DNA of 64,000 nucleotides from Nanobdellota archaeon (GCA_038046345.1 JBBSWJ010000005.1:24784-88783), one strand, 5' to 3'; positions 14,316 to 53,902 are shown, numbered from the stretch's first letter. Program-made: numbers and translations. The notes: a model not told the origin generated them from the letters alone.

Positions 14316-17305
14316 TCGAGCTATTGGAAAATGCAGGCTTAATTTCTCGTTGCCTTGAAACTTACACCCCACTCCCATCAAACAGATCTTCTATCTGTGC
14401 TCTCCTTCTCTTTTCAAGGTGGGTTTCGTCCTTAGATGCTTTCAGGACTTATCCCACAAGGCGTAGCTGCCCGGCCTGCCTTGTCAGACAACCGGTACAC
14501 CAGAGGCCTCGAATCCTCGTTCCTCTCGTACTAAAGGATCCTTCCCCTCAGAAGATAAACAAATCCAGTAGATATCATACAAACTGTCTCACAACGTTCT
14601 TAACCCAGCTCACGATCCCTTTTAATAAGTGAACACCTTCACCCTTGGCCGCAAGCAGTACGTGGAAACTGTTAATTTCGACATACCATGCTCTTTTCCG
14701 CGCATTTCTGCACGACCACTCTACGATACAAGAATCTAATCTTTGTATCCGGATAGGAAGAGCCGACATCGAGGTAGCAAGCAGCGCCGTCGATAAACTC
14801 GGAATCAATTTATTGATCCTTTGAGCTCTTAGGCGCTACAACTCAATTATGCCCGAGATAGCTTTTCTGTCATGTCTAGCCCCCATCAATGAGGACATAG
14901 AAGTTCGCTAGGCCATACTTTCGTACCTGAATCCCGTATTGTTTGGAATCCAGTCAAGCCAGCTTTTGCCCTTGCACTCCACAGAGAATTTCTAAATCTC
15001 TTGAGCTGACCTTTGGGCCCTACTGATATCCTTTCAGCAGGGTCCCGCCCCAGGCAAACTATCCGCCAGTAGTTGTCTTTCATTACTGAAGTAAGTAATA
15101 TAGAATACAGAGGGTAGTATCTCACTTTTGCCTAAACGTACACTGGCGTGCACGCATCAACAGCTCCTACCTATTCTTAACACCATACTCCATACCACAG
15201 CTACAAGCTATAGTAAAGTTCTACGGGGTCTTCGCTTCCCACTGGAATTCTCTGGCCTTTGCACCAGAATAGTGTGTTCGGGAGGTTCTACGTAAAGACA
15301 GTGGATACCTCGTTACGCCATTCATGCAAGTCGTCAATCAAACGACAAGGTATTACGCTACCTTAAGAGAATTATAGTTATTCCCGCCGTTTACACGCTC
15401 TTAGCCCCCTTGAAAAGGAGTTTAAAGTACATGCACTGGGCAGACGTCACCTCCTATACAAACCATTACTGGCTAGCAGGAAGTTTCGTTTTTGTTAAAC
15501 AGTCGGGCATCCTTAGTTATTGAATCCTGTACTCGCAACTAAAAGCTACAAGCGCAGGAACCCCTTATGCCGAAGTCACAGGGCCAATATTGCCGATTTC
15601 CTTTACGTAAATTACCCCTCTCATACCTTAGGCTACTAACCCAGGGCACCTGTGCTGGTTCTGGATACGGTTATTTATGATCCTTCCATATTGTTTTTTC
15701 ACGGGCTCAAGGCATCTACCCAATCAACATACATTGACTATTCTCAGCTTTTCTCAGGTTCTCATCATGACAATTCTCCCCTGACATATGCTAATTAACA
15801 ACCATGTCTATGATTGTGGGTATAGCCCAAAGCAGCAACAATAAGGCTTTCGTCGCCGAATGTACATAAATAGTACTGGAATATTAACCAGTTTGCCTCT
15901 TCCCGCACGTCAATTTATGAGTGCAGTTAGGTCCGACTAACTCTTAGCTGAACTGCAGTGCTAAGAAAACCTTGCCCTTTCGGTATTAGAGAGTCTCACT
16001 CTATATAGGTCCTACTACCACCGGGATTCTTATTCGTACACGGTCCATTTACTTTCACAAGTATACTTCCATCCATGCACGACACCTATCTACCACCTTG
16101 CTTTACAGCAAGTCTGAAGTATCGGTCGTCAGTTTAGCCCCGTTAATTTTCAGGGCATAATACCTTGACGGGTGAGCTATTACGCTTTCTTTAGAGGATG
16201 GCTGCTTCTAAGCCAACCTCCCCGCTGTCTCTGGTATTACACACCATTCACCCTTTCACACTTAACTGACAGTTAGGGACCTTAACTTCAGGCTGGGATG
16301 TTCCCCTTTTGGGACACACGCTTACCGCGCGCCCCTGCTTCCCGCCTTCTACGACGCATTGACATTTGGAGTTGAACAAGAGTGAGAGGAATTTCTTCCC
16401 TTAACATTCTAATCCGTAGCTCTACAACCAATGCTATCTCGAGCGAGACTATTCTGCGGCATATTTCGATAGGAACAGGCTATTAGCAAACTCGATTGGC
16501 TTTTCACCCCTAATCCCAAATCATAAGAGCACATGCACGTAGCACCTCTTCAGGCCTCCACCTCGTATCACCAAGGCTTCACCTTGCTCAGGATTAGATC
16601 GTCTGCTTTCCGGTCAGACCCCCATGACTTAAGGCGCTTTCACACCTCGCTCCTCGCAAGCTGCGAGCATTTGCTTTCGCTCAGCATTCGTACTAAAAGT
16701 ACTTACGCTCGCCATGAAGATCAACTCCCCGGCCCGTTATTCAAAACGTACGGTGCAACTCATGCTGCACCATTCTATAACCGTAAGGTTTCAGGAACTT
16801 TTCACACCCTATCAGAGGTACTTTTCAATGTTCCATCACTGTACTATTTGCTATCGGACTTAAAACATATTTAGCCTTAGAAGTTGATGCCTCCTAAATT
16901 CCTGCTCAATATCCAATGAACAGTACTATGGATACTTGTAAATCTTTCACGATTATCCTACGGGGCTATCACCCTGTGTCGCATACCATTCCAGATAACT
17001 TTAGATAAACATGTTAAGATGAAAAACAAGTCCAAACACCACATGTTGCTTCTTTTTCAAGAAGTAATTCGGTTTAGGCTATACGGATTTCGCTCGCTGT
17101 TACTCACCGCATCTCAATTGATTTCTTTTCCTGCGGGTACTAAGACGCTTCAGTTCCCCGCGTTATACATCCTCTCGGATTTAATAGGAAGTCCTATTCG
17201 GGAATCATTGGTTCGTAGGCTGCATGCGCCTCGCCAATGCATTTCGTAGCTTGCCACGCCCTTCATCTTTGTTTTTAAGCCGAATCATCCACCTTACGGC
17301 GTAAT
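14316..17305 (-). rRNA. 23S rRNA (ends approximate)
   Basis: Reverse-complement matches are seen to the sarcin-ricin loop AGUACGAGAGGAAC (near 14520), GAGCUGGGUU.AGAACGU.GUGAGACAGUU, CCUCGAUGUCGGCU, AAGACCCCGU and the 5' GGAUGAUUCGGC...GAAGGGCGUGGCAAGC. The gene is bounded by a long flanking inverted repeat. Confidence 0.9.
14795..14820 (-). other. 26-nt BHB-like insert (candidate mini-intron) in 23S helix 89
   Basis: RNA sense reads AAGA-GCUC-AAA-GGAUCAAUAAAUUGAUUCC-GAGU-UUA-UCGAC. The elements are a 4-bp helix GCUC:GAGU (one G.U), 3-nt bulges AAA and UUA, and an inner 7-bp hairpin. Removal gives GAGCUCAAAUCGACGG, against the canonical GAG(U/C)(U/C)CAUAUCGAC. Confidence 0.45.
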
Positions 17306-17342
17306 GACCTATAATTACACACAATACCTATACACGATATCA
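17306..17342 (-). other. 5' half of the 23S pre-rRNA processing stem
   Basis: Complement of 14285..14315. Confidence 0.7.
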
Positions 17343-17440
17343 TTAAATGAATATTTCATCTGTCCTAAGACTATGATATCCTTCACCCACAACAATTCAG
17401 TTTGTGAGTTGCACTATTTCATTAAAAAATGAATATGATA

Positions 17441-17548
17441 TGGACCCGTCGGGAAAATCGACGATCCAAGATGTCTAATGCAAATCGTTTTCGAACCCGA
17501 GGCCCCTACCTTGCAAGGGTAATGCTCTACCAGCTGAGCTACGGGCCC
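17441..17548 (-). tRNA. tRNA-Ala(UGC) with a 35-nt intron in the T-loop, located in the 16S-23S spacer
   Basis: RNA: GGGCCCG UA GCUC AGCUGGUA GAGC A UUACC CUUGCAA GGUAG GGGCC UCGGG UUCGAA[35 nt]U CCCGA CGGGUCC A. The G3:U70 alanine identity pair is present and the anticodon is UGC. Confidence 0.85.
17455..17489 (-). other. BHB intron of tRNA-Ala between T-loop positions 59 and 60
   Basis: The outer helix h is the T-stem UCGGG:CCCGA. The central helix H is UUCG:CGAU (3 bp plus U.U). The bulges are AAA and UUU. The inner helix h' is ACGAU(UU):(GG)AUCGU. Cutting after the 2nd bulge nt gives a 7-nt T-loop UUCGAAU. Confidence 0.75.
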
Positions 17549-17564
17549 AAACAATTGGATTGAC

Positions 17565-17599
17565 TGTACGAGATTAATTTCAGTGATTAGAATAGTAAA
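17565..17599 (-). other. 3' half of the 16S pre-rRNA processing stem
   Basis: tgtacgagat (17565-74) pairs with atctcgtaca (19205-14). gaatagtaaa (17590-99) pairs with tttactactc (19178-87), with one G.U at the RNA level. Confidence 0.65.
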
Positions 17600-17605
17600 A
17601 AAAAT

Positions 17606-19140
<1,535 letters not shown>

Positions 19141-19177
19141 TATTTTGGTCGCATAAAATTGGAAATTTTTGTAATAC

Positions 19178-19214
19178 TTTACTACTCATAACCATTGCTG
19201 CTTTATCTCGTACA
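19178..19214 (-). other. 5' half of the 16S pre-rRNA processing stem
   Basis: Complement of 17565..17599. Confidence 0.65.
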
Positions 19215-19329
19215 TCATACTTAATACTTCTGATTAAGTATTCACGTATTATATCACTAAAGTGATATTTTAAGAAGATTAAAAACTATGCTCAATCTTC
19301 ATTAAGTGAAACAAGTGTTGGCATCTAGC

Positions 19330-19337
19330 TTATAAAT
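19330..19337 (-). promoter_or_regulatory. candidate rRNA operon TATA box (ATTTATAA on the minus strand)
   Basis: This is the only strong TATA-like element upstream of the 16S leader, about 115 nt before the processing stem. Confidence 0.35.
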
Positions 19338-19448
19338 ATTTCTGTTCATGTGCTATAGCATGATAAACGAAAAATTAGTTTGGGCCTGACTTTCAATTTC
19401 GTATAACATACGAAGTCAGGTAAAAGATATTCGTATCCAAAACTGCTT

Positions 19449-19706
19449 TCATTTCCTAGCTTTCTTTATGGCACTTTCAACATCAGCTTTGGTTATACCT
19501 TTCTCCTTGGCGAATTGCTGCGTTTTTTGAAGCAGTTTATCAAAGTTTTTGAATGAAGGCATCGTTACTTTTTTTAGTATGACTGTATCATCTTCTCCAA
19601 CAACTACAAATTTTTCCCCTTCCTTTAAGCCTAATTGCTCCCTTATATCCAAAGGTATAACTACCTGCCCTCTTGAGCTCATGCTTGTTATTTCCAATCT
19701 TTGCAT
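19449..19706 (-). CDS. AbrB/MazE/SpoVT-family DNA-binding protein (antitoxin-like, no adjacent toxin)
   Basis: SSRGQVVIPLDIREQLGLKEGEKFVVV is a typical swapped-hairpin AbrB motif. Confidence 0.75.
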   Translation of the reverse strand: MQRLEITSMSSRGQVVIPLDIREQLGLKEGEKFVVVGEDDTVILKKVTMPSFKNFDKLLQKTQQFAKEKGITKADVESAIKKARK

Positions 19707-19878
19707 TTTGTTTGCCTCCTTGATAAGAATATCTTATTAGTAAGAGTATCTTATATGTAAATGCTGTGCTTTGGGGGATGTAGCACAATCTGTATTGGTT
19801 AGCAGGAAACTAAACCTAATTTTGTCCCTCAGCCCAATCACAAGAAATACTTATAAGTTATAAAAAATATGCATACTA

Positions 19879-20556
19879 ATGCTTACCCCAATAATCCTTG
19901 CTTGTCTTCTGTCAATAGCGCATATTTTCAGCGAAAAAATAAGTAGTGCCATTGAAGAATATCACGAAAAGATATTAAGTTTTAATTCAGGATTGTTCAT
20001 TGCGTTTTTATTTTTATTTTTAATACCTGGAGCAATTAAAGAAAGTCTAAACTTAAAAAATGTATTTTATTACATGCTTACTGGGTTAGTTGCGTTTCAT
20101 TTGGCAGAAAAATATTTGTATCAACATATTAGACATAAAAAAGAACTTATGAAAGAACTTGCATGGCTGCACATTATAGGCTTCTTTATTGATTATTTTG
20201 TTATTGGATTAGTTTTGTCATTAACGTTTATCACGGAAAAAGAACTAACTTTTTTAATATTTTTACCTTTTTTGCTGCATACAGTTTCTTCATCATTTTC
20301 CCTAGAGCACATTACTGAAAGATTTAACAATAAGCTACTAAAAATGTTATTGTCAATAGCTACAATAATAGGTGCAATTGCCGGACTTTTTTTACAGCTT
20401 ACAAAAGCTATACTGCCTTTAATATATCCAGTGTCAGTTGGAATATTAATTTACATTACTATGAGGGACATGATACCCAAAGGTAAGGATAAAAACCCAT
20501 TATTATTCTTGATCGGTGTTATGATAACTGTATCAGTGTTTATAATCACTAACTAA
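19879..20556 (+). CDS. polytopic membrane protein, possibly a ZIP-like metal transporter
   Basis: Has about 7 hydrophobic segments and His/Glu pairs within TMs (AFHLAEKY, LLHTV...LEH). The function is weakly supported. Confidence 0.5.
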   Translation: MLTPIILACLLSIAHIFSEKISSAIEEYHEKILSFNSGLFIAFLFLFLIPGAIKESLNLKNVFYYMLTGLVAFHLAEKYLYQHIRHKKELMKELAWLHIIGFFIDYFVIGLVLSLTFITEKELTFLIFLPFLLHTVSSSFSLEHITERFNNKLLKMLLSIATIIGAIAGLFLQLTKAILPLIYPVSVGILIYITMRDMIPKGKDKNPLLFLIGVMITVSVFIITN

Positions 20557-21607
20557 TCTTCTTAAGCGAATAAAGCACTTTTTCAAAGACAGAGTAAGCA
20601 TATTTTAGTTCTTGAACGCTGGTCAATTGGCTTATGCTTAATCTTAACGCGCTTTTAATTCGCTCCTCAGGCAAATTCATAGCTAACAGGACATGGCTTG
20701 GCTTCTGTTCTCTGGCCGAACAAGCACTCCCAGAACTAACAAAAACTTTTTTATGCGATAGATGTTGTAACATATCCATGCTTAGAACACCAAATGATAT
20801 ATTTAACAATCCATGTACACTCTTTTTTGGAGTATTAACCACCCCAAGAGCCCTGAATCTTTCAAATTCTTTTAATACTTTGGAAGAAATAGGAGAATAA
20901 TTTTGAATAGCTTTTGCAAAACCAGCAATTCCAGGGACATTTTGTGTACCAGCACGTAACCCAAACTCTTGAGAACCAGCAATTAAAGATTTTGCTTTAG
21001 TAGGATCATTCACGAACACAGCACCAACTCCTTTTGGTCCGTGAATCTTATGAGCGCTAATAGTAAGAAAATCAACAGGAATCTTCTTCACGTTAAAATC
21101 TAGCTTACAAAAACTCTGAACTATATCAGTATGAAACAGAGCTTTACAATCACGAGCCACATCATTCCAGTATTTTATATCTTGAATAGCACCTACCTCG
21201 TTATTAACATGAATAACAGATATTAATCCCGTGCCTAGCTGAGGTTCATATTCCTTAACGAAACATTCTTTATCAACGGGTAAAAGTTTATAATTGCATT
21301 CTTTGCCTGGATCAAGTAATGACTTATGTTCAACAGCGCTCATTAAAAGTTTTTTATTTCTTGGAACTTGTTTTATAATAAAATTATTCCCTTCAGAACC
21401 GCAAGAAGTAAAAATAATCTGATCAGCATTAGCATTAATCTTTTTTGCAACAACTTCTCTAGATCTTTCCAGAGCATCTGCTGCTACTTCACCTAAACGA
21501 TGCATTGAAGAAGGATTGCCAAACTTTTCATTGAAAAAAGGAAGCATGGATTCTACCACTGATTTTGTTACAGCAGTAGTAGAAGCACTATCAAGATAAG
21601 CTTGCAT
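20549..21607 (-). CDS. cysteine desulfurase (class V aminotransferase, NifS/IscS-like)
   Basis: Has YLDSASTT, the SAHKIHGPKGVG PLP-lysine motif and SSGSACS. The start is trimmed to MQAYLDS (ATG 21607), which avoids overlap with the divergent gene. Confidence 0.85.
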   Translation of the reverse strand: MQAYLDSASTTAVTKSVVESMLPFFNEKFGNPSSMHRLGEVAADALERSREVVAKKINANADQIIFTSCGSEGNNFIIKQVPRNKKLLMSAVEHKSLLDPGKECNYKLLPVDKECFVKEYEPQLGTGLISVIHVNNEVGAIQDIKYWNDVARDCKALFHTDIVQSFCKLDFNVKKIPVDFLTISAHKIHGPKGVGAVFVNDPTKAKSLIAGSQEFGLRAGTQNVPGIAGFAKAIQNYSPISSKVLKEFERFRALGVVNTPKKSVHGLLNISFGVLSMDMLQHLSHKKVFVSSGSACSAREQKPSHVLLAMNLPEERIKSALRLSISQLTSVQELKYAYSVFEKVLYSLKKIS

Positions 21608-21657
21608 TTGCTTGATATAACAAATAGTATTTAAATAAGTTTCTTTTAAAAAAATCA

Positions 21658-22266
21658 ATGATGCGCGCAAAAAAACTAAGTAATGATGTGTGGGAGCTGT
21701 CCGGAGGATTACAACCAAGCTCAAATGTATATTATATTAAGTCCATGCAATTGCTAATAGACTTAGCAAGCGAAAAAAATAAAGCAGACTTATTACAGCA
21801 GCTAGAGTTCATAAATGTAAAAGTTGAAGATATTAAGATCATTATTCTAACACACTTTCACTTTGACCACATTGGCAACTCAAAACTATTTAAACACGCA
21901 AAATTCTATGCTTCAGAAGATGAAATTATTAGCTATAGATTTGCACCAAGAAAAACAACTGGTAGCACTGGAAAAGAAATAGAAGGAATAAACATAAAAA
22001 AAATACCTGAAAGAATAGGTATTCTAAAAATCATTAAAACTCCAGGGCATACTAGAGGTTCTATATGCATACTCAAAGAAGATGATAAAATATTATTTAC
22101 CGGAGATACATTATTTCGAAATGGAGCGGTTGGTTGCACCAAACTACCAACATCTGTACCAAAAAAGATGGAAGAATCATTAAAAACTTTGTTAGCTATC
22201 CCACACAACGAATTAGGACCGGGGCACAATCTTGAAGATGGACTTATACTACAACAACATCATTAA
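21658..22266 (+). CDS. MBL-fold metallo-hydrolase
   Basis: Contains THFHFDHIGN and TPGHTRGS. Confidence 0.8.
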   Translation: MMRAKKLSNDVWELSGGLQPSSNVYYIKSMQLLIDLASEKNKADLLQQLEFINVKVEDIKIIILTHFHFDHIGNSKLFKHAKFYASEDEIISYRFAPRKTTGSTGKEIEGINIKKIPERIGILKIIKTPGHTRGSICILKEDDKILFTGDTLFRNGAVGCTKLPTSVPKKMEESLKTLLAIPHNELGPGHNLEDGLILQQHH

Positions 22267-22690
22267 TTATAACGAATTATACGGAGAAGAACAAGAACAA
22301 AAACTTAAGATTATTAAAGAATATTTCGGAGAGTGTAAAGTACTTGACGTAGGATGCGGAACATTATTATCTAAAAAATATTTCAAAGATGTAACAGGAA
22401 TAGATCCAACTGGAATACCGCCAGCAATAAAAGGTGTTGCTGAATCGCTGCCATTTAAAGATAAAGAATTTGATTTGGTAATTTGTGTAACGGTTTTACA
22501 CAATGTAAACAATCCTGAAAAAGCTATACAAGAATTAAAACGAGTAAGCAAGGGAAAGATAGCAATAACATTACTAAAAAAAAGCAGTAAACTTCAATGT
22601 TTAAAAGAATTAACAGAAAAGTACTTTAAAAAATTTAAAATGATAGAGGAAAAAAAAGATATCATATATCTAATCAAATATTCTGAATAG
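22232..22690 (+). CDS. class I SAM-dependent methyltransferase
   Basis: Contains VLDVGCGTLL (motif I) and FDLVICVTVLHNV. Confidence 0.75.
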   Translation: MKMDLYYNNIINYNELYGEEQEQKLKIIKEYFGECKVLDVGCGTLLSKKYFKDVTGIDPTGIPPAIKGVAESLPFKDKEFDLVICVTVLHNVNNPEKAIQELKRVSKGKIAITLLKKSSKLQCLKELTEKYFKKFKMIEEKKDIIYLIKYSE

Positions 22691-24505: not shown

Positions 24506-24718
24506 GGGATAAAATAATTAAATACTATATAAATAGTTTACTATACTAAAATTGCTGTGAACCGATATAAAGCTAAGTTTCAGACCAGCCGAATAACCAT
24601 GTAGAACGCTTAAAGGTGCCGATCTTTTAATAAGCTAGATCAGTCAATAAAGAGGATTATTACCAAAACAGTTTTGATGCACAGGTAAGTTTAAATATTT
24701 GCTTGAAATAAAAAAATT

Positions 24719-27309: not shown

Positions 27310-27371
27310 GTTTTATCCGTAACAAGTGAAAATACAACATTTTTAAAGAGCAAAAAGAAATACTTTCACTA

Positions 27372-27872: not shown

Positions 27873-27881
27873 TTTATTATC

Positions 27882-37316: not shown

Positions 37317-37503
37317 TTACCCTTATCTATCTTTAGATAGGGCTTATTTTTAAAGTTTTCTAAATAAAAAGTGCTTAAATTTTGATACTAGACGGCTTTA
37401 CAAGCATGTTTTTGTCTTTATAACCAAGACTGTAAATTTAACTTTACTACTCAAGAATAGGTATAATACAAAGATTTAAAAAGTAGTAAAGATTTTTAAC
37501 TAT

Positions 37504-43030: not shown

Positions 43031-43076
43031 ATTGCTTTACAATAAAACTTTTAAATGTTTTGATACACCAACTGTT

Positions 43077-43325: not shown

Positions 43326-43900
43326 GAGTAGTAATAGCTGGTGGGCCATATTGTGGTAAAACAACAGTAATAAATGAATTAAGCACACAGGGCTTTAGGA
43401 CAATAAACGAAGCAACAACGGAGATTATTAAAAAGGAACAAGAAGCAGGTAATAACGAACCATGGTTAGAAAGAGAAAAATTTCAGAAAAAAATCATGGA
43501 TCTTCAAATTCAACAGTTTAATTCAGCAAAAAATAATGTAATTACTTTTTATGATCGGGGTTTAGTTGATGGATTAGCATACTATCATTTAGATGGCATT
43601 GACCCACCAAAAGAACTAACAGAACATGCCTCAAAAAAAAGGTATAATCTTGTTTTCATTCCGGATCTTATTGAAGGATTCAAACCTGACAAAACTCGTG
43701 GTGAATCACTTGAAGAACGTAAGCTAGTTCATGAGCTTATCAGAAAATGTTATTCTGATCATGGTTATAATGTAATTAATATACCAAGCATAAGCGTTTC
43801 TGAACGTGTATTGTTTATTAAAAAGAAGATTAGCGAGCATAAACTACTTTTAAAAGATAATATACGCCGAGAGCAGGATTTGAACCTGCATATCCGTTAG
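43310..43900 (+). CDS. AAA_28-type P-loop ATPase/kinase-like protein
   Basis: Has VVIAGGPYCGKTT Walker A and FYDRGLVDGLAY. The start is set at MDNQIRV (ATG 43310). The 3' end overlaps the antisense tRNA-Ser. Confidence 0.7.
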   Translation: MDNQIRVVIAGGPYCGKTTVINELSTQGFRTINEATTEIIKKEQEAGNNEPWLEREKFQKKIMDLQIQQFNSAKNNVITFYDRGLVDGLAYYHLDGIDPPKELTEHASKKRYNLVFIPDLIEGFKPDKTRGESLEERKLVHELIRKCYSDHGYNVINIPSISVSERVLFIKKKISEHKLLLKDNIRREQDLNLHIR

Positions 43901-43960
43901 GAAACAAGCTTACTGGTATAATTTCCAGGCTTGCGCAATACCAAGTTATGCGATCTCGGC
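43865..43960 (-). tRNA. tRNA-Ser(GGA) with a 12-nt canonical intron
   Basis: The acceptor is GCCGAGA/UCUCGGC with discriminator G. The anticodon stem is CAAGC/GCUUG and the loop is CU-GGA-A[AUUAUACCAGUA]A. It has a long variable arm (UCC-UAAC-GGA) and T-arm GCAGG-UUCAAAU-CCUGC. Confidence 0.85.
43911..43922 (-). other. canonical (37/38) BHB intron of tRNA-Ser
   Basis: The central helix is CUGG:CCAG and the bulges are AAA and UAA. Confidence 0.75.
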
Positions 43961-44038
43961 ATGTTATTGAAATAGGTATGTCATTAAAAAATGTTTTGTT
44001 AAGAGAATATTTATAATGTTTCATATACCATCGTGATT

Positions 44039-44878: not shown

Positions 44879-44879
44879 T

Positions 44880-45188
44880 TTACTTCTGTAGGCGTATAAA
44901 TATTTGTACCCACTCAGGTATTGGCAGTCTCATTATCAGCCTTAAGGCCCGTTCATCATCATCTAAATCTATAAGCCTCTTATGTATCCTCATTTCAAAA
45001 TTATCAAAACTAGCTTTTCCATCACCGCATGGGCTTCTTCGTGTAGTAATCTTCAGTTTCTGTGTAGGTAAAGGTATTGGTCCATATACTTTTACTTTAG
45101 TTTTTTTAGCAATACCAACAATAGCAGAACTTATTTCATTCATTGCATCTATATTCGGGCTAGATAGATTTATTCTTGCTTTTTGCAT
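44880..45188 (-). CDS. rps10: ribosomal protein S10 (uS10)
   Basis: MQKARINLSS...GPIPLPT...RSPCGDG...FEMRIHKRLIDL. Confidence 0.9.
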   Translation of the reverse strand: MQKARINLSSPNIDAMNEISSAIVGIAKKTKVKVYGPIPLPTQKLKITTRRSPCGDGKASFDNFEMRIHKRLIDLDDDERALRLIMRLPIPEWVQIFIRLQK

Positions 45189-45289
45189 ACTGATATCATT
45201 TTTATTAGGTTTATAAATATTACCATGATAAAAATTCCATTAAAATAGTCCATAATAATATTTATTAAGATTATAAGCACGCTATAGTT

Positions 45290-46696
45290 ATGGCAATAAA
45301 GATGGGGTTAACATTTGATGATGTTTTACTTGTTCCAAAATTCTCAAATATAACTTCCAGAAAAGATGTAGACACAAGTAGTTATTTAACAAAAAATATT
45401 AAACTTCATGTCCCTATAGTTAGCGCTAATATGGATGTTGTTACCGAATCTCGTATGGCTATATCCATGGCCCGGATTGGTGGTATTGGCTTTCTTCATC
45501 GTTTTATGTCTATAGAAGAAGAGACAGACCGTGTCTTTCGTGTTAAACGCGCAGAAACTATAACCGTTGAGAAGCCATTCACTTTAACTCCTGACAAAAC
45601 CTTAAAAGACGCAAAAAAGCTTATGCAGGAACATGGTGTTACTGGAATTCTTATCACGAACAACCAAAACAAGCTTATGGGTATTCTCACATCGCGTGAT
45701 ATCCGATTTGAAACAGATGATTCCAGGATTATAAAAAGTATTATGACAACAGACTTAATTACCGCCCCGGCCAAGACTTCTTTAGACTCTGCCAAAAATA
45801 TTTTAAACAAGAACAAGATAGAAAAACTTCCTTTAGTTGATTCTTCCAATCATTTAACCGGATTAATCACATCAAGAGATATTCTTAAAAGAAAAGAATT
45901 TCCAAATGCCTCTAAAGACAAAAAAGGCAGGCTGATGGTTGGTGCAGCAATTGGAGTTAAGCCGGGCGAACTAGAGCGTGCTAAGTCATTGGTTAATGCT
46001 GATGTTGATTTATTGGTTATTGACATAGCTCATGGGCATTCTTTATCAGTAATCAAAATGTTAAGAACTTTAAGAAAGAAATTTGATATAGATATTGTTG
46101 CAGGCAATGTAGCAACAATGGACGGTGTTAGAGATCTAACTAAAGCCGGTGCTGACGGTATCAAAGTAGGCATTGGCGGGGGATCAATCTGCACTACAAG
46201 GATTGTTACCGGCTCAGGTGTACCACAGCTAAGTGCAATTATGGCCTGTTCTAAAGCTGCAGCTGGTAAAGTACCAATCAATGCAGATGGTGGTATTAGA
46301 AATAGCGGTGATATCACTAAAGCTTTAGCTAGTGGAGCTAGCACAGTTATGCTTGGTTCATTATTAGCTGGGACTGATGAAAGCCCTGGAATTCATATTA
46401 CTAAAGATGGTAAAAAATATAAAATGACTCGGGGTATGGCTTCTATAAGCGCGCGTACTTCCGTTTCAAAGGATACAAATGATATCCAAGAATACGTTGC
46501 TGAAGGTATTGATGGGCTTGTTCATTATCGTGGTAGTGTTAATGACATCATTCAACAATTAGTTGGTGGATTACGCTCAGGTATGAGTTATTGCGGTGCA
46601 TCATCCATAATCAACTTACAAAAAAATGCTGAATTTGTTAGAATAAGTCATGCTGGATTAACTGAATCAAAATCACATGACATAGAAAAGATGTAA
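45290..46696 (+). CDS. guaB: IMP dehydrogenase with CBS pair
   Basis: Has GLTFDDVLLVP, VSANMDVVTE and GIGGGSICTTR with the catalytic Cys, plus an internal CBS tandem. Confidence 0.92.
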   Translation: MAIKMGLTFDDVLLVPKFSNITSRKDVDTSSYLTKNIKLHVPIVSANMDVVTESRMAISMARIGGIGFLHRFMSIEEETDRVFRVKRAETITVEKPFTLTPDKTLKDAKKLMQEHGVTGILITNNQNKLMGILTSRDIRFETDDSRIIKSIMTTDLITAPAKTSLDSAKNILNKNKIEKLPLVDSSNHLTGLITSRDILKRKEFPNASKDKKGRLMVGAAIGVKPGELERAKSLVNADVDLLVIDIAHGHSLSVIKMLRTLRKKFDIDIVAGNVATMDGVRDLTKAGADGIKVGIGGGSICTTRIVTGSGVPQLSAIMACSKAAAGKVPINADGGIRNSGDITKALASGASTVMLGSLLAGTDESPGIHITKDGKKYKMTRGMASISARTSVSKDTNDIQEYVAEGIDGLVHYRGSVNDIIQQLVGGLRSGMSYCGASSIINLQKNAEFVRISHAGLTESKSHDIEKM

Positions 46697-46697
46697 C

Positions 46698-47978
46698 TTA
46701 TTTCTTAACTATTTCTAAGCACACACCTGCAGCTACAGTTGCTCCAGCGTCCCTAATAGCAAAACTTGCCATTTGTGGAATAACAGATTGTTTTTCTATT
46801 ATTAATGGCTTTGTTGGTTTTATTTTTACTTCAGCAACGTCATCATTTTTTATAAAATCAGGATTTCGTTGAGCTATTTGACCTGTGGTTGGATCAAGTT
46901 TTCCAACTAATTCAGTAAACTGACATGCTACTTGAGCTGTGTGTATATGGAATACTGGTGTATATCCAACGGTTATAACAGTTGGATGATTGATAACAGC
47001 TATTCTAGCAGTAAACTCACTCACTACTGTTGGCGGATTTGTTTCATGGCCTAGTACATCTCCCCTTGCAATATCTTTTTTGCCTATGCCTCTTACATTA
47101 ATCCCTATATTATCGCCAGGTTCTGCCATTGGCACTTGTTCATGGTGCATTTCAATACTTTTTACTTCCCCTCTGACTCCGGTTCCTTCCCTTGCTGGTA
47201 AGATCATTATTTTATCTCCAACCTTCATAACTCCAGTTTCTATTCTAACAACTGGCACAACTCCTATACCGGTTATGTTATAAACATCTTGTATTGGCAT
47301 TCTTAATGGTAACTCGGTTGGTTTTTCGGGTGGTTTGAATAGATCTAATTGCTCCATTAATGTTGGTCCTGTATACCATTTCATATTCTCAGATTTCTTT
47401 ACTATATTATCCCCTTTTAGAGAGGCTAAAGGTATGAATGGCACTTCTTCTACTTTAAATCTTGCACTTTTTAATAATACACTAACTTCATCTTTTACTT
47501 TATTGAATTTTGCTTGATCATATTGGATAACATCCATTTTATTAACAGCTACTGCTAGTTGTTTTATACCAAAAGTTTTACATAGCCACGCGTGTTCTTT
47601 TGTTTGTTCTTTTATTCCTTCTGTTGCTGCTACTACTAATATCCCTACATCTGCTTGTGAAGCTCCTGTTATCATATTTTTCACAAAGTCTTTATGTCCA
47701 GGCGCATCAATTATAGTATATTCATATTTTTTTGTAACTAATTTTTGATGAGATAAATCTATTGTGACTCCCCTCTCTCTTTCTTCTTTTAGAGTGTCCA
47801 TAACAAATGCAAATTCAAACCCAACCTTTCCTAACTCTGCTGCTTTCTCTTTCAATTTTCTCATAGCTTGTTCATCAACATTACCGCTGTCATACAACAG
47901 TCTACCTACGCTAGTGGACTTTCCATGGTCTACATGCCCAACAAATATTATGTTGATGTGTGGTTTTTCCCTTGCCAT
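46698..47978 (-). CDS. tuf: translation elongation factor aEF-1 alpha
   Basis: Has [14 protein letters not shown] and NKMD. AAGGAG lies 7 nt upstream of the ATG. Confidence 0.95.
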
Positions 47979-48261
47979 TAGTTTACTCCTTTAATTTTAT
48001 TGTTTTTATTGCATTTCAGATTAAACCTACTTTATAAAGATTTCTATTTGCCAGTTTTTGCCAGATCACCTACAGCTATTAGTCGGTCGTTCTAAACAAG
48101 TTTATGCTGAAGAAAAGAACATTATAAATAAAGCTAAACAGGTATTATAGACTCCTTGGAATTTCTCAAATTCTTTTACTTTAATCTTTTTATTTTTTTT
48201 ATTTATCATACTGGAAAGATACAAGCTTTCTTATATTTCTCTTCTTCCTTTCAAAAGTAGG

Positions 48262-48359
48262 TAAGAGCATCACAAAGGTTAAATGAGTATTCCAGATATT
48301 GGCTCCACCACGCAGCCCAAACCAAATAGATACTCTTAAAAGGCAGTTCTGTGCTCTTA
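48262..48359 (+). ncRNA. candidate structured RNA or 5'-UTR element (unknown class; strand uncertain)
   Basis: The closing stem is taagagca/tgctctta (8 bp). Nested stems are gagtat/atactc, cca/tgg and ggct/agcc. It forms a local GC-rich island in AT-rich intergenic DNA, just upstream of the zinc-ribbon ORF. Confidence 0.3.
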
Positions 48360-48388
48360 TGTAAGAATGCATATATGGAGGAACCTAA

Positions 48389-48559
48389 ATGAGCTTTGAT
48401 AATAGAAACCGGGACGGTTTTCGTAACGATGGCCCTAAAGAAATGCACAAAACGAATTGTACAGATTGTGGAGCTGACTGTGAAGTACCTTTTAAGCCTA
48501 CAGTAGGAAAAGCTGTTCGTTGTGCAGAATGCTTTAGAAAAAGTAAAGACAGAAGATAA
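48389..48559 (+). CDS. small zinc-ribbon protein (56 aa, CxxC-x17-CxxC)
   Basis: Own translation: MSFDNRNRDGFRNDGPKEMHKTNCTDCGADCEVPFKPTVGKAVRCAECFRKSKDRR. GGAGG lies 8 nt upstream of the ATG. The C..C..C.VPFKP....PV.C..CF pattern recurs in small archaeal and bacterial proteins. Confidence 0.65.
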   Translation: MSFDNRNRDGFRNDGPKEMHKTNCTDCGADCEVPFKPTVGKAVRCAECFRKSKDRR

Positions 48560-48694
48560 TCTTGAATTTTTATCCAAGTCTAGGCTTGGATTTTACTGTT
48601 TTTTTTAAAAAACTTAGATACTTGATACATTTAGGATAAGCTATTCGTAAATTTTTTTTAGTTGTATTTAGCTTATTGGTTTAAGTCACCTAAT

Positions 48695-51049
48695 TTAATC
48701 CCGTCTTTTAACATAGAAGTAACCTACTATAATTAAAACAATAACAATTATTGTTACAATCCACATAATCCTTCCAAATCCTTTCTCACTAATCTTTTCT
48801 TCAATATCTCCGCTAACAGTAGGAATTTCTTCACTTGGTGCTGATTCTTCTTCGGCTACAACCTCAAGATCTTTTAGTTTTAAAACAGTAATTGTTGCAA
48901 CCCCGTTAGTAATGCTTTCTAAAGTTACCTGTGCATTAGGTGTTCCGTCTCCGTCCATATCAACATCCTTTGTTTCTCCAACACTTAATGTTACTTCAGC
49001 TTTGTAACTTTCAATAGTAAAAGTTAAAGTATTCTCATTTACTTTAACAAAAGTGATAGTATGCGCATCAGTGCCACTTAAACTAAATACCTTAATACTG
49101 CCTTGCGATCCAACAAAAGTGGTCTTATCACTTGTACTCAGGTCTGCGTCTAATACTAGTTCCTCACCAGATCTGCTAATACCGCTCCCGCCGCCCGAGC
49201 TTGATGCATCTCCGCCGCCAGTGCTAGTGAAAACAATAAACGTTATTATACCAGTGCTAGTTGTAGTGTGCACAACTTGATCTTTTGTTGTGCATTCAAC
49301 ATTATAAGTACCTGCTTCATTAGTATCAGTATTCTTAAATTCTTGATCACTGCAAGTTTCGCTGGTTTTAGTAATAGTGCTACCACCTGGTTTAGTTATC
49401 TTAATACTACAAGTGTTCATACCACTTACACTATCAGTTCCAGAGCAGCCATATTTTATGCTGCTGAATGGATTGATATTCTTGTCTGCTGGTTCTGTAA
49501 GCGCAACAGTAGGCACCCCTCCGTCAAGAACAAAACTGCCTCTGTAATATTTTGGCCATTGAGCTACTGCAGTTGAATTTATCTTAATAATAAAATTAGT
49601 ATAATTTCCATCGCTGCTATCATTTGCTACACCTTTGCCAATAGTACCGTTATATAGCGTGATATTAGTTGCTCCATAAGCACCTGTAGTTATGTTTGTT
49701 AGGTTTAAGTAACCATTCGCAGCAACCCCATTATTTTCCTCTGTTCCAAAATCTGCAGTAGTATTAAATGTAAAATAACCATAAGCATTTTTATTTCTTG
49801 TATTTGCTGCAACAGCAATTACCCCGCCACTGCCTTCGATTGTAAAGGTTAGCAATGAATTTGCCTGTAAGTACCCTACACCACTCCTTCCAGACCCTAG
49901 TTGGTTTTTATCAAAATCCAATACATTTCCTGCTTCATCAGTTATGTTTAAAGCAGTTATATTAGGCTGACCGTCAAGCCCTATAAACATAAATGGATTA
50001 TCTGTTAAGAAATTATTATCTGATGTGTCATTAATTGTAATGCTATTACCAACTGTATCATACGCTCTTATCACGAATGTTGTTGCATTCCCTTTAGTAT
50101 CCCCCTTATCATTTCCATCAGATCCAGTTCCAACACAGTCTAAATCAATAACCCCTTCGTATGTTCTATTACCAGATTGTGTATCGCTTGTTGTCATTGA
50201 AACATTTCCATACTGCCCTGTAGAAGCAGTTTCTGTAGTTGATGCAGTAGCATTGCTGCTGTTGCATACATAATAAAGGTCTACTGTATCAAAATGGGTA
50301 TCTTGAAGATCAACTTTTACTGTTGTATTTTCTATTGGCATATAAGCCCCATCATTATAAGATCCGGTTTGGAACAAAAGTGATGCCTGGCCAGTCCCAT
50401 TTGCGCGGCTAAAATTCCCTCCAACTAAACCATCAGAGATATTTATAGACATTATTTGTGGGTAGTAAGTGTCTATATAAGTGTACATAAGTGTTGAGTT
50501 TGTTGCTGATGTGCTATCAGCCATATAAATAGTTACATTCCAGTCCTGTCTGCGGCTATGTCCAATACCATCCACTTTATCTGCTGTAAGGTTTACACTG
50601 AATATATAATGACCTGGTAATGTTCCATTATCTGTATTATTCCACCAAATATTACTTAACGTCCCGTCCGTGCTGTTACCAAAGTTCCAGCTTCCTGAAC
50701 CATTTGTTGCATTTGCATGTCCATCAACACCAACAGAACCGATACCATTTGATCTATTAAAATCAAGTCCTGAAGGTTGAAAAGTAAAATTACTAGGAAT
50801 TGTTATATTAACCACTGAAAAATTTGCAGAATCTGCGCTATTAAAAATAATAGAAAAATTAAATCTTACATTTGTGTTGTTCCTTTGAACTATCCCCGAA
50901 AATGCCGTTGTTGTTGCTACTGTGTCGCTTATACTTAAATTTGATCCTGTATTTGCAGTGGTATCAAGATCTGCAATAGTAACACTAAAATGGAATAATC
51001 CAAACAGTAACAGTACAATCATCAATTTAATTTTTGTATTCAATAACAT
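48695..51049 (-). CDS. large surface (S-layer-like) protein, sequon-rich, with C-terminal TM anchor
   Basis: Has a signal peptide, dozens of N-x-S/T sequons, a Gly/Ser linker, and a C-terminal TM IMWIVTIIVIVLIIVGYFY followed by KRRD. Confidence 0.75.
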   Translation of the reverse strand: MLLNTKIKLMIVLLLFGLFHFSVTIADLDTTANTGSNLSISDTVATTTAFSGIVQRNNTNVRFNFSIIFNSADSANFSVVNITIPSNFTFQPSGLDFNRSNGIGSVGVDGHANATNGSGSWNFGNSTDGTLSNIWWNNTDNGTLPGHYIFSVNLTADKVDGIGHSRRQDWNVTIYMADSTSATNSTLMYTYIDTYYPQIMSINISDGLVGGNFSRANGTGQASLLFQTGSYNDGAYMPIENTTVKVDLQDTHFDTVDLYYVCNSSNATASTTETASTGQYGNVSMTTSDTQSGNRTYEGVIDLDCVGTGSDGNDKGDTKGNATTFVIRAYDTVGNSITINDTSDNNFLTDNPFMFIGLDGQPNITALNITDEAGNVLDFDKNQLGSGRSGVGYLQANSLLTFTIEGSGGVIAVAANTRNKNAYGYFTFNTTADFGTEENNGVAANGYLNLTNITTGAYGATNITLYNGTIGKGVANDSSDGNYTNFIIKINSTAVAQWPKYYRGSFVLDGGVPTVALTEPADKNINPFSSIKYGCSGTDSVSGMNTCSIKITKPGGSTITKTSETCSDQEFKNTDTNEAGTYNVECTTKDQVVHTTTSTGIITFIVFTSTGGGDASSSGGGSGISRSGEELVLDADLSTSDKTTFVGSQGSIKVFSLSGTDAHTITFVKVNENTLTFTIESYKAEVTLSVGETKDVDMDGDGTPNAQVTLESITNGVATITVLKLKDLEVVAEEESAPSEEIPTVSGDIEEKISEKGFGRIMWIVTIIVIVLIIVGYFYVKRRD

Positions 51050-51115
51050 GCACCTCTATTTTTTTAATAAAATTATAATAAACCACTAACTTATAAACCT
51101 TTCTTAAAAAATTTA

Positions 51116-53902
51116 TTATAATTCTTTTATACCCTTTCTATCTTTTATTTGTTTTCTTATTTTATCTTGCAATGATTCAGGCAGCTTCTCATACATTTGG
51201 TCTACCACAAAATAGCTACCCCGGCCACCAGTAGCGGATCTTAAGTCGCTGCTTAATCCAAACATTTCACCAACAGGTAGCTTGCATTTAACGGTCATTT
51301 GTACTCCCTCTTGTTGCACTTCTAACAATTGCCCTCTTTTATTTTGTATTAATTTAGATACATCTCCTAAATAATCACTAGGCGCTCCAATATGTAATTC
51401 CTGTACTGGCTCATAAATATATGGTTTTCCTGTTAGTATAGCCTCTCTTATCCCCTCTCTTACAGCGGGGTATACCTGGGCTGGCCCACGATGTATTGCA
51501 TCTTCATGTAATTTCATATCAGTAACTCTTACTTTCATCTTCATTGTTGGTTCTTTTGCAAGTATTCCAGCATCGCAAACCTGTTCAAAACCATCTATTA
51601 CTAATTCTATTACTTCACCTATCTGAACTATACCACGAGTGTCATCAACTAATAAGTTTCCCTTGTATATATCCCTATATTTCTTCGCGTCTTTTAAGAT
51701 AACTCCTTTCTCTTCTAATTTTTTAAATGTATCAACATCCTTTTTTTTAAGCCTGCCATCAGGTATTTCTCCGTCCCTCATTAATTGATAAATCTCATCT
51801 TCTAAAGGTTCAACAATAAAAAAGAATTTATTATGTTTATTTGGGGATTTTCCTTCTTTTTCTTCAGATACCTTGGTTACCGCTTCTCTGTACACAACAA
51901 TAGGCGGGCTTGTCCTTACTTGCAAACCTTTTTCTGTTTTTATCCTATTCTCAATAACTTCTAAATGTAGTTCGCCCATTCCAGAAATTAAGTTTTCTCC
52001 TGTCTCCTCATTAATTTCGATTGTTATTGTTGGATCCTCTTTGTTTACTTGCTTTAGTACTTCAACAAGTTTTGGCAAGTCAGCAGGAGATGTTGCTTCA
52101 ATACTTTTTGTAACAACCGGGTCAAATATATGTTTTATTGCTTCAAACGGTTCCATTTCTTCAGATGCAATTGTCTCTCCAGCAAACACATTTTTTAACC
52201 CCACTAAACCTACAATATTACCAGCAACTGCTTTTTCAACGGTTACTCTTTGAGCTCCTTTGTATATCGATACCTGTTGTATTCTAATCTTTCTTTTTGC
52301 ATTGATCATATATGCATCATCGCCCTGTCTTACAGTTCCAGAGAATAATCTACCAGCCGTTACTTCTCCTGCATGTTTATCAATAACAATTTTTGTTGCT
52401 ACAAAAGCAGTCGGACCATTAGGATTACAGTTTACTAATGACTTTCCAATTTCAGAATCTAAATCTCCATGCCATATTTTTGGCACTCTGTATTTCTGAG
52501 CGTCTACAGGGTTTTTATGGTGTGCTATTACCATCTCGAGGACAACTTCATGCAATGGCGCTTTTTTTGCTATACCCTTCCATTCATCATTTTCATATGC
52601 TTTTATAACATCTTTAAAGCTCAGCCCATTTCTTAGCATATAAGGAGCAGATAACGCCCAATTATGAAATGCAGATCCAAATGCTACACTCCCATCTTTA
52701 ACATGAACTAACCATTTTTCTTTAAATTCTTCTGGGGCTACACTCTGTATGAACTTGTTTATCTCAGTTATTATTTTCACAAATCTTTCTTGCATTGCTT
52801 CAGGTGTTAGTTTTACTTCTTTTATTAAACGATCAACTTTGTTTATGAATAATACTGGCTTGACTCTTTCTCTTAACGCTTGACGCAACACGGTTTCTGT
52901 TTGAGGCATTATACCTTCTACTGCATCACATAATACTATTGCCCCGTCTACAGCTCTCATCGCTCTTGTTACATCTCCTCCAAAGTCTACATGCCCGGGC
53001 GTGTCAATTAGATTTATTAGAAAATCTTTTCCATTAATTACGTGAACCATAGATACATTTGCTGAATCAATTGTGATCCCGCGTTCTTGTTCATCTGCGT
53101 GGAAATCCAAAGCTAATTGTTTTCCAGCTAACTCTTGTGACATCATCCCGGCTCCTGCCAATAAATTATCTGAGAATGTTGTATTATGGATCACCATTCC
53201 CTCAGCAACAAAATTATGATTGTCTGCAACTGTAAAATCGTATACCATATCTTTCTGTGTTATCTCTTTTGAATTAACCTCACAGTACATAATATCTTCA
53301 CTTAATATTTTATTCTCTTGGATTAATATTTGTCCATTATTCTCTATTTTTTCTTTATAACCACTTAATGAGATTGATATTGCATCTTTTTGGTGCGGCC
53401 AACTTTTCATGCAAACTACAAGATCCTTCAATTCTAATTCTCTTGCTTCTTTATAACAAAAGTCACGTGCGAGCCTATCCAAAACTAAATAACGATGTTC
53501 TGGTGTTGTTTCAATTGAGCTGCCATTTTTTAATTTTATTTTTATTAGTTCACCGCCAGTTAATTTCCAAGCAAGGCTGATTAGTTTCTTTTCTATTTTC
53601 CCTGAATCTTTATTTAATGATAATACCTTAACACATTGGCTTGTAACATCATAAACAACATGACCATTCTTTTTTTCAAATAGTTTTCCATTTTTTATGA
53701 TCTTATCAAATAGCTTCTCTGCCTGTATAACTGAGCTATCACCTAAAATAATTCTAGACTCACCAGAAATACATTTCCCATGATATCGTTCTATGAAGGG
53801 TTAACTCGATAGAAAATCGATATGGGCGCATATAGCTATATTTCTGATTTGTTCCGGTTCATTCATTAATTTAACAACTTTTTCTGCTATCTTATCCGCC
53901 AT
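51116..53902 (-). CDS. fusA: translation elongation factor aEF-2, interrupted by a 33-nt BHB intron and a 197-aa mini-intein
   Basis: Exon 1 (53902..53816) encodes MADKIAEKVVKLMNEPEQIRNIAICAHID. Exon 2 (53782..51116) starts HGK, continues through the intein, then TTFSDNLLAGAG...DTPGHVDF...NKVDRL...HEDAIHRGPAQ. The lengths are 87 and 2667 nt and both are in frame. The predicted mature protein is about 720 aa. Confidence 0.85.
53183..53773 (-). mobile_element. mini-intein (197 aa) inserted after the P-loop GK of aEF-2
   Basis: Starts CISGESRIILGD (block A). It has ETTPEHRY (block B, TxxH) and ends VAEGMVIHN, followed by the +1 Thr of the extein (TTFSDN). Confidence 0.8.
53783..53815 (-). other. 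33-nt BHB intron within the aEF-2 coding sequence (contains an in-frame TAA)
   Basis: RNA 53826->53777: CCCAU-AUCG-AUU-UUCUAU-CGAGUUAACCCUUC-AUAGAA-CGAU-AUC-AUGGG. All three helices are perfectly Watson-Crick, with two 3-nt bulges separated by 4 bp. Excision restores AHID|HGK. Confidence 0.75.

Follow-up and report, generated by a model that had tools for sequence, protein, structure and literature searches.

Bulge-helix-bulge (BHB) introns in the cbf5 pre-mRNA of Crenarchaeota were reportedly described by Watanabe in 2002 and by Yoshinari in 2006, and were treated again by Yokobori in 2009 (PMC2738675). In the literature searched, BHB splicing of a protein-coding transcript has been confirmed for cbf5 only, in some Crenarchaeota (PMC2738675), and a 2025 structural paper on the enzymes still cites the cbf5 case alone (PMC12397907). 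Among stable RNAs, tRNA introns of Thermoproteales, ARMAN and other DPANN archaea occupy sites outside the canonical 37/38, for example 59/60 in the T-loop, and form relaxed HBh' motifs, where h, H and h' denote the outer, central and inner helices (PMC5829648, PMC12397907). A high density of tRNA introns goes together with variants of the tRNA-splicing endonuclease EndA that carry extra loops, and broad specificity is found in DPANN EndAs with such loops (PMC5829648). BHB introns have also been noted in the large- and small-subunit rRNA genes of DPANN archaea, together with group I introns (PMC6125680).

Here we analysed a 64,000-nt stretch of DNA from a Nanobdellota archaeon (GCA_038046345.1 JBBSWJ010000005.1:24784-88783; "the window" below), in which the gene for archaeal elongation factor 2 (aEF-2) is interrupted by a predicted 33-nt BHB intron. 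The window very probably carries at least eight BHB introns within ~40 kb: one each in tRNA-Ser, tRNA-Ala and the aEF-2 mRNA, two in the 16S rRNA and three in the 23S rRNA. The BHB-intron reading draws support from predicted structure, from host sequences that are exactly restored, from covariation and from relatives with empty sites. On these grounds, the proposal of the initial annotation that BHB-type introns occur across tRNA, rRNA and mRNA in a lineage rich in micro-introns was borne out. It had counted five intervening sequences in 40 kb; all five loci stood, while the number of introns rose to at least eight, with two in 16S and three in 23S.

Like the cbf5 intron, the aEF-2 intron is short, has no open reading frame (ORF), lies within a protein gene and is predicted to form a BHB across the exon-intron boundaries; in both cases the distribution is patchy with lineage-specific loss, and the host gene is mispredicted by gene callers (PMC2738675). 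It falls outside the cbf5 family, its host being a TIGR00490 aEF-2 found in metagenome-assembled genomes (MAGs) of Woesearchaeota/Nanoarchaeia, that is, in mesophilic AT-rich DPANN archaea and not in Desulfurococcales/Sulfolobales. The cbf5 intron occupies one position, whereas aEF-2 introns occupy four within ~20 nt, in P-loop codons beside an intein site. Splicing is experimentally confirmed for cbf5, while the aEF-2 intron is known here from sequence. By its predicted structure, the aEF-2 intron is of the cbf5 mechanism class, but both its host gene and its lineage are new, and it is unusual in its micro size, in lying beside an intein and in occurring at several positions. The literature searched contained no report of such an intron in aEF-2, which is no proof of absence.

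A predicted BHB intron in the aEF-2 pre-mRNA

The aEF-2 gene comprises the following features.

53816..53902, minus strand: aEF-2 exon 1, translation MADKIAEKVVKLMNEPEQIRNIAICAHID, ending after the GAT (Asp) codon of the P-loop
53783..53815, minus strand: predicted BHB intron of the aEF-2 pre-mRNA, 33 nt, with h CCCAU/AUGGG, H AUCG/CGAU and h' UUCUAU/AUAGAA
51116..53782, minus strand: aEF-2 exon 2, beginning CAT GGG AAA (HGK)
53183..53773, minus strand: mini-intein of 197 aa, CISGES...VIHN|T, located after the P-loop HGK and 9 nt downstream of the RNA intron

The minus-strand frame reads MADK...NIAICAHID, followed by 11 codons (FLSS*PFIERY), HGK, the intein (CISGES...VIHN) and TTFSDNLL... through to the stop codon. 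The insert thus splits the GTP-binding P-loop AHIDHGKT between AHID and HGK, with an in-frame TAA as its fifth codon. Unconstrained minimum free energy (MFE) folding of 61 nt (53775-53835, minus strand) returned a full hBHBh' around the insert, with bulges AU|U and AU|C. For all loci we used one fixed splice rule: the 4 nt occupying -6 to -3 at the two splice sites pair with each other, each bulge has 3 nt, and cleavage follows its second nucleotide. Applied to aEF-2, rule-based cuts join CAU AUC GAU to CAU GGG AAA, restoring AHIDHGK exactly, with the predicted ligated junction CAUAUCGAU|CAUGGGAAA. The 33-nt intron that had been proposed for the aEF-2 mRNA is therefore confirmed as to its position (53783-53815), its in-frame TAA between AHID and HGK, and its predicted BHB fold.

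The strength of the motif was assessed by scanning both strands of the window (128 kb). A strict Watson-Crick hBHBh' scan (h of at least 5 bp, H of 4 bp, h' of at least 6 bp) had the aEF-2 site as its sole match, where 0.025 matches were expected from composition-preserving shuffles. With G.U pairs allowed and h and h' of at least 4 bp, there were 243 matches, and 11 with h of at least 5 bp and h' of at least 6 bp compared with 11.6 in shuffles; because this count is at chance level, a loose BHB motif by itself is no evidence of an intron. The 11 include hBHBh'-like matches at 37344-37379 (plus strand), 43499-43526 (minus strand) and 20304-20333 (minus strand), which we treated as chance. An ORF-continuity screen for more mRNA introns gave 270 candidates and no discrimination in this AT-rich genome.

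Apart from the insert, the gene has the features of an intact aEF-2. The RNA-spliced, intein-free sequence scored 1051 bits against TIGR00490 (cutoff 738), spanning positions 4-718 of 720. The intein matched the N-terminal model TIGR01445 at 59.8 bits (cutoff 24.5) and the C-terminal model TIGR01443 at 28.2 bits (cutoff 15.6); it has an N-terminal Cys and a C-terminal His-Asn followed by Thr, and Pfam Intein_splicing is annotated on the public gene call. Its location in the GTP-binding P-loop (HGK|T) is typical of the P-loop inteins of NTPases (PMC4760082). Those elements act at the protein level and are separate from the RNA intron, and what is unusual here is an RNA intron 9 nt away. Public gene calls for the same contigs give aEF-2 as a truncated 788-aa ORF (51116-53482) and, in one case, exon 1 as a 33-aa ORF. 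A split-protein reading of aEF-2 was considered and rejected.

Predicted aEF-2 introns in related archaea

We examined 80 related aEF-2 loci (numbered with the prefix L), of which 69 have an uninterrupted P-loop, some with an intein after HGK, nine have an insert, and two lack the N-terminus. The nine inserts are 30-38 nt long and contain in-frame stops, most also shift the frame (for example those of 31 and 32 nt), and in each case removal restores AHIDHGK. Counting the window, ten species carry an insert at one of four positions within ~20 nt, in the same P-loop codons. Five relatives (L024, L025, L028, L037 and L040) share the position after the Asp codon seen in the window (the D site), two inserts are within the Ile codon (L043 and L056), one is after the first His codon (L017), and that of L007 is within the Lys codon (AA|A), which is the intein insertion point.

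At each intron-bearing locus, the exon's nucleotides at -6 to -3 form pairs with those at -6 to -3 of the intron, and beyond the 5' bulge there is a hairpin whose sequence differs between loci. The 3' strand of H, within the intron, tracks its exon partner, as seen for ATCG/CGAT, GCAC/GTGC, GCAT/ATGC and TGGT/ACCA. In an ungapped alignment with fixed geometry, 86.7% of cells were paired compared with 45.3% after shuffling (none of 500 shuffles reached the observed value) and 29-42% in slid controls, and double-sided, compensatory changes were present in all nine pairs of the alignment. The exons follow the same pattern. Among six loci with an intron at the D site, five have an exon-exon helix h (GCC-CAT ... 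CAT-GGG) of 4 bp or more, compared with 3/68 intron-less loci (Fisher p = 2e-5). Exon codon choice maintains the outer helix where the D-site intron is present.

If the gene were dead, or the insert an error of sequencing or assembly, with the functional aEF-2 located elsewhere, this would account for the stop within the insert and for the truncated ORF given by gene callers, and the two aEF-2 loci in one relative MAG (L033 and L051) indicate that duplicates or bin contamination occur. We nevertheless regard this explanation as extremely improbable: outside the insert, the 2.7 kb of the window's gene are flawless and match the aEF-2 equivalog at 1051 bits, all ten intron-bearing species conserve exon 1 with its start codon, the inserts of the ten species fall within ~20 nt and are all BHB-capable with compensatory changes, and exon codons co-vary with intron presence. 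The two loci L033 and L051 are on two contigs of a single MAG (DATDYF01, SMAG_U8158), each with an intact aEF-2, and could reflect duplication, strain mixture or bin contamination.

The relatives also bear on whether the 33 nt might be skipped during translation, without RNA splicing, by programmed bypassing of the T4 gene 60 or mitochondrial 'byp' type. Three introns lie within a codon (phase 2; L007, L043 and L056), and the would-be take-off and landing codons mismatch, being GAT and TAT in the window and GAT and GTT or TTT in relatives. The size of 30-38 nt, the stop soon after take-off and the hairpin in the gap do resemble bypass elements, but the conserved pairing at -6 to -3 and the 3-nt bulges are needed by EndA and not by bypassing, and the same geometry is present in tRNA and rRNA of the same genome, where translation is irrelevant. 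Bypassing is thus highly improbable, and excision as a BHB intron is the preferred reading.

In a neighbour-joining tree of aEF-2, introns are scattered and intron-less sisters are common. The sister species L040 and L043 have related intron cores (AGTTTAAGTT...CTTAACT) that are 5 nt apart, with 3' pairing strands CGAG and GTGC, respectively, each fitted to a different exon partner. This distribution suggests repeated loss and gain or, as for L040/L043, short-range relocation. In all ten aEF-2 introns, an in-frame stop lies no more than five codons from the 5' splice site; given base composition, the chance of such a stop is estimated at ~0.3 per independent intron, so the pattern is suggestive, but these introns are mutually related. 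Inteins at the window's site are also found in L008, L019, L020, L022, L037, L057 and L075, as coding inserts of ~585 to 1540 nt, and some of these relatives' inteins probably contain a homing endonuclease.

Predicted introns in rRNA and tRNA genes

The window has a minus-strand archaeal rRNA operon (16S 17606-19140, a spacer tRNA, 23S 14304-17316) and a second tRNA (43865-43960). The features of the 16S gene are as follows.

17606..19140, minus strand: 16S rRNA gene, Rfam SSU_rRNA_archaea 1342.5 bits
18380..18411, minus strand: predicted 16S intron a, 32 nt, at E. coli 793/794 in the 790 loop, with H UUAG/CUAA, bulges AU|A and AU|A, and h' of 8-10 bp
18373..18379, minus strand: predicted 16S micro-exon, 7 nt, ACCCGAG, E. 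coli 794-800, also present in L101
18342..18372, minus strand: predicted 16S intron b, 31 nt, at E. coli 800/801, with H CCCG/CGGG, bulges AG|A and AA|U, and h' GUGAUGUG/UAUAUCAC

The 790 loop holds ~60 extra nt, which the initial annotation had read as a single 61-nt insert. The locus stood, while the single intron gave way to introns of 32 and 31 nt around a 7-nt micro-exon. The predicted product, GGAUUAGAU-ACCCGAG-UAGUCC, has the consensus length and shows a single G-to-A difference (E. coli 799). When metagenomes were scanned for the 793/794 insert, 19 archaeal 16S loci were found, of which 18 have the 793/794 intron alone and one, L101, has both. In L101 the introns occupy the window's two sites and the micro-exon ACCCGAG is shared, while the intron sequences are different; its intron at 800/801 is 48 nt with H CCCG/UGGG. 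The h' helix of intron a is present in all 15 distinct intron sequences (window included), with each locus having its own h'.

Removal of 61 nt as a single intron, without a micro-exon, would give a near-consensus GAUAC|CCGGGAAUAGUCC and retain the C783:G799 pair. Its product, however, has a 2-nt insertion relative to the consensus, and its boundaries form three of four H pairs with neither h nor h' and are not among the matches of the scan with H of 4 bp. The 18 loci with the 793/794 intron alone also speak against it. Finally, because the first 16S intron of L101 begins directly after GGATTAGAT, without 'AC', the micro-exon is the only possible source of the 'AC' in GAUAC; this argues for excluding the single-intron reading, which we consider unlikely. 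The preferred reading is that of two introns flanking the micro-exon.

The widely used 785F/806R amplicon primers bind E. coli 785-806, and both window 16S introns (18342-18411) fall inside this region. Organisms with these introns would probably be missed by 785F/806R amplicon surveys. Position 793/794 is not among the 13 loci listed for 16S introns of Thermoproteales, and locus 803 of that list is near the window's 800/801 (PMC4496867). Apart from the window, the 793/794 intron is seen in many other, mostly GC-rich, archaeal 16S genes of JGI metagenomes (L097-L115). For L104 and L108/L109, the bases immediately 5' of AACCGG do not resemble 16S, pointing to another intron that ends at this point, close to locus 781.

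In the 23S gene the predicted introns are located in domain V.

14304..17316, minus strand: 23S rRNA gene, Rfam LSU_rRNA_archaea 2405 bits
14795..14820, minus strand: predicted 23S intron 1, 26 nt, at E. coli 2477/2478 in the loop of helix 89 (H89), with H GCUC/GAGU and bulges AA|A and UU|A
14719..14750, minus strand: predicted 23S intron c, 32 nt, at E. coli 2521/2522 in helix 91 (H91), with H CUAU/GUAG and h' GAUACAA/UUGUAUC
14706..14718, minus strand: predicted 23S micro-exon, 13 nt, UGGUCGUGCAGAA, E. coli 2522-2534, contiguous as TGGGCGTGCAGAA in L101
14653..14705, minus strand: predicted 23S intron d, 53 nt, at E. coli 2534/2535 in the H91 loop, with H GCAG/CUGC

Compared with the Rfam model, the H89 loop is 28 nt (consensus 2 nt) and H91 is 101 nt (consensus 16 nt). 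Intron 1, with an h' hairpin of 7 bp and an h of 2 bp, was recovered by unconstrained MFE folding (z = -3.4). Without introns c and d, H91 reads AUCCUG, 16 nt and CAAGGG, equal to the Rfam consensus spacing, and its stem GGUCG/CGGCC forms. The predicted spliced junctions are GAGCUCAA|AUCGAC and, for c and d, UAUCC|UGGUCGUGCAGAA|GCGGCC. All three introns are absent from the 23S of L101, whose contiguous DNA aligns gap-free with the predicted spliced sequence and is of equal length; within the H91 stem, U:G has become G:U, a compensatory change. The 26-nt 23S insert of the initial annotation was recovered at 14795-14820, and its "possibly more" corresponds to the two further introns at 14719-14750 (32 nt) and 14653-14705 (53 nt). 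A first metagenome scan, with the 23S H89 insert as the pattern, found no other example. Inspection at the level of the Rfam alignment covered domain V, and the rest of the 23S was checked by pairwise alignment with E. coli; the inserts relative to E. coli at 274, 634 and 1537 are in variable regions and were not counted as introns.

Insertions are known in DPANN rRNAs, and bacterial 23S intervening sequences are excised without ligation. The rRNA inserts could accordingly be retained expansion segments or be cut out to leave fragmented rRNA. They lie, however, in the 790 loop, H89 and H91, each has BHB geometry, and the 23S inserts are absent from L101, whose sequence agrees with the predicted ligated product. 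Without ligation, the micro-exons of 7 and 13 nt, parts of the 790 loop and H91, would be lost, and introns only 7 nt apart are already documented in Thermoproteales 16S, at loci 901 and 908 (PMC4496867). Retention or unligated excision is thus very unlikely, and we favour BHB introns that would be removed with ligation. As in other archaea, the rRNA introns of the window interrupt conserved cores and universal primer sites and number several per gene, but all are micro-introns of 26-53 nt without a homing-endonuclease ORF (PMC4496867, PMC6125680). A self-splicing group I or group II intron was rejected, as there was no Rfam intron match at E<=1 and inserts of 12-53 nt are far too short. Across 16S and 23S domain V, independent ENA and Logan assemblies of the same population were 99.4-100% identical to the window and free of indels; given this agreement in the rRNA intron regions, the inserts are no single-assembly artefact.

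Several further observations concern the operon. Once its introns (111 nt) are subtracted, the 23S falls ~85 nt short of the Rfam archaeal model, with deletions relative to E. coli at 143-171, 1868-1882 and 2783-2795, and thus appears reduced despite its introns. The 16S flanks (19141-19420 and 17549-17605) can pair into a long processing stem (duplex -33 kcal/mol), as can the 23S flanks (17317-17440 and 14100-14303, minus strand; -40 kcal/mol); such stems flanking 16S and 23S are usual in archaeal rRNA operons. No 5S rRNA gene was found in the window.

Both tRNA genes are also predicted to contain an intron.

43865..43960, minus strand: tRNA-Ser(GGA) gene, Rfam tRNA 46.4 bits, called tRNA-Ser(gga) by ARAGORN once the intron is removed
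43911..43922, minus strand: predicted tRNA-Ser intron, 12 nt, at the canonical 37/38, with h CAAGC/GCUUG, H CUGG/CCAG and 3' bulge UA|A
17441..17548, minus strand: tRNA-Ala(UGC) gene in the 16S-23S spacer, with G3:U70, called tRNA-Ala(tgc) by ARAGORN once the intron is removed
17455..17489, minus strand: predicted tRNA-Ala T-loop intron, 35 nt, at 59/60, with the T-stem UCGGG/CCCGA as h, H (U.U)UCG/CGA and h' ACGAU/AUCGU

Default ARAGORN found no tRNAs in the window. With exactly the predicted intron nucleotides taken out, both tRNAs gave clean cloverleaves, while both precursors were undetected; the canonical 12-nt tRNA-Ser intron (43911-43922) and the 35-nt T-loop intron of tRNA-Ala (17455-17489), each part of the earlier proposal, are upheld by ARAGORN matches seen only without the intron. 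For tRNA-Ser, the anticodon stem serves as the outer helix and the 5' splice site is within the terminal loop. The tRNA-Ala intron has bulges AA|A and UU|U. A 33-nt register for this intron was rejected: it would have a perfect H (TCGA/TCGA), yet the T-loop would be 9 nt. The tRNA-Ala of L101 has a T-loop intron at the same place as the window's, with a different sequence. This spacer tRNA-Ala (Ga0209542_10003175, reverse strand ~7990-8130) has two introns, at 37/38 and in the T-loop, and the latter follows the rule of cutting after the second bulge nucleotide less neatly than the window's. While the T-loop site and relaxed motif are as described for tRNA introns of Thermoproteales, ARMAN and other DPANN archaea (PMC5829648, PMC12397907), the geometry in the window extends to an mRNA.

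Across the inventory, the central geometry (3-nt bulges on opposite strands of a 4-bp helix) is found for aEF-2, 23S introns 1, c and d, 16S introns a and b, and tRNA-Ser, with tRNA-Ala having a relaxed central helix of 3 bp plus a U.U mismatch. The flanking helices vary, with h of 5 bp and h' of 6 bp in aEF-2, 5 bp each in tRNA-Ala, h only in tRNA-Ser and mostly h' only in rRNA. The introns had been described as AT-rich. This was correct relative to rRNA (intron GC 0.16-0.43 compared with 0.45-0.48), but not relative to the genome (0.33) or the aEF-2 coding sequence (0.35). The suggestion that other apparently broken genes might be interrupted by introns yielded no second example: no other protein gene looked split among the window ORFs scanned against Pfam, a scan made without a gene-by-gene test. 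As a further possible site, the P-loop of EF-1alpha was interrupted in 0/37 neighbouring EF-1alpha genes of relatives, and Rfam at E<=1 over the window gave no further tRNAs or other RNAs.

Proposed splicing route and genomic setting

Several points weigh against the BHB-intron reading. No near-identical spliced aEF-2 was present among the matches listed from a 5.8-billion-protein set queried with the spliced N-terminal 425 aa, and the genes for EndA and the RtcB ligase were not among the window ORFs scanned against Pfam. L025, L028, L037 and L040 have a central helix of just 3 bp plus an A.G. No outer helix is formed by aEF-2 introns away from the D site or by either 16S intron, and 23S intron 1 has just those 2 bp. 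In the predicted mature 16S, A799 would make a C.A opposite C783, where most archaea have C:G. In addition, choosing the best BHB among one to three frame-restoring cuts per locus biases the covariation count slightly.

Action of EndA and RtcB, the cleavage chemistry and splicing in vivo are inferred from what is established for archaeal splicing. The primary transcript would fold so that both splice sites are in 3-nt bulges on opposite strands of a 4-bp helix, EndA would cut after the second nucleotide of each bulge to leave 2',3'-cyclic phosphate and 5'-OH ends, and RtcB would join the exons and circularise the intron. In the tRNAs and rRNAs, splicing would restore the anticodon loop, the T-loop, the 16S 790 loop and 23S H89 and H91. 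For aEF-2, it would remove 33 nt including the stop, giving an mRNA that encodes the intact P-loop AHIDHGK, and protein splicing would then take the 197-aa mini-intein out of the translated precursor. With an intein after HGK in addition to the RNA intron, mature aEF-2 would therefore need both RNA and protein splicing within the same 12 codons. Since the intron, at nt 88-120 of the coding sequence, carries a stop, unspliced RNA would yield a 33-residue peptide. The relaxed motifs and non-canonical positions fit a broad-specificity endonuclease.

The route has a parallel in eukaryotic IRE1 splicing of HAC1/XBP1, where a protein endonuclease likewise cuts a structured mRNA, a tRNA ligase (RtcB or Trl1) joins it, and no functional protein can be made from the unspliced mRNA. 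The endonuclease and motif are different (twin stem-loops, not a BHB), and the HAC1/XBP1 system is regulatory. We raise tentatively, as a rather doubtful possibility, that the aEF-2 intron might act as a checkpoint: because all ten introns carry an early in-frame stop, only transcripts processed by EndA and RtcB would give EF-2. If so, together with the adjacent intein, elongation capacity would be coupled to the state of tRNA splicing and RNA repair, as with IRE1-XBP1. A related reading, equally doubtful, is a mobile intron family that targets the same P-loop DNA as the intein, which would fit because there are four positions within ~20 nt and the L040/L043 cores are shifted by 5 nt.

If spliced as predicted, aEF-2 would be a second host gene for archaeal mRNA splicing, an essential and universal translation GTPase in at least ten DPANN species, in another superphylum and at moderate temperature; with a second host gene, archaeal mRNA splicing therefore looks broader than one gene. 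A compact 60-nt aEF-2 substrate is now at hand for splicing tests. The 7-nt and 13-nt micro-exons, as well as the clustering of RNA introns and an intein in one P-loop, provide material on the gain, loss and movement of such elements. There are also consequences for annotation: aEF-2 called as a truncated ORF plus a 33-aa fragment, and tRNAs missed by default ARAGORN, distort marker-gene phylogenies and completeness estimates of DPANN archaea.

The host is a Woesearchaeota-like DPANN archaeon from Hainich groundwater. Exact protein matches assign its population to metagenomes of this groundwater, whose wells are the source of ERZ1292643 and ERR3858113-5. The nearest aEF-2 relatives in a species-level genome collection are Woesearchaeota/Nanoarchaeia MAGs with at most 75% identity. 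The window has a GC content of ~33%, and its protein genes include archaeal threonyl-tRNA synthetase, phenylalanyl-tRNA synthetase alpha and beta, aIF5B, aIF2-gamma, EF-1alpha, gyrase A and B and aEF-2. Directly downstream of aEF-2, 48695-51049 (minus strand) encodes a 784-aa secreted or anchored protein that is rich in Thr, Ser and Asn. It has a C-terminal transmembrane helix and numerous N-x-S/T sequons, and probably belongs to the surface layer or is adhesin-like.

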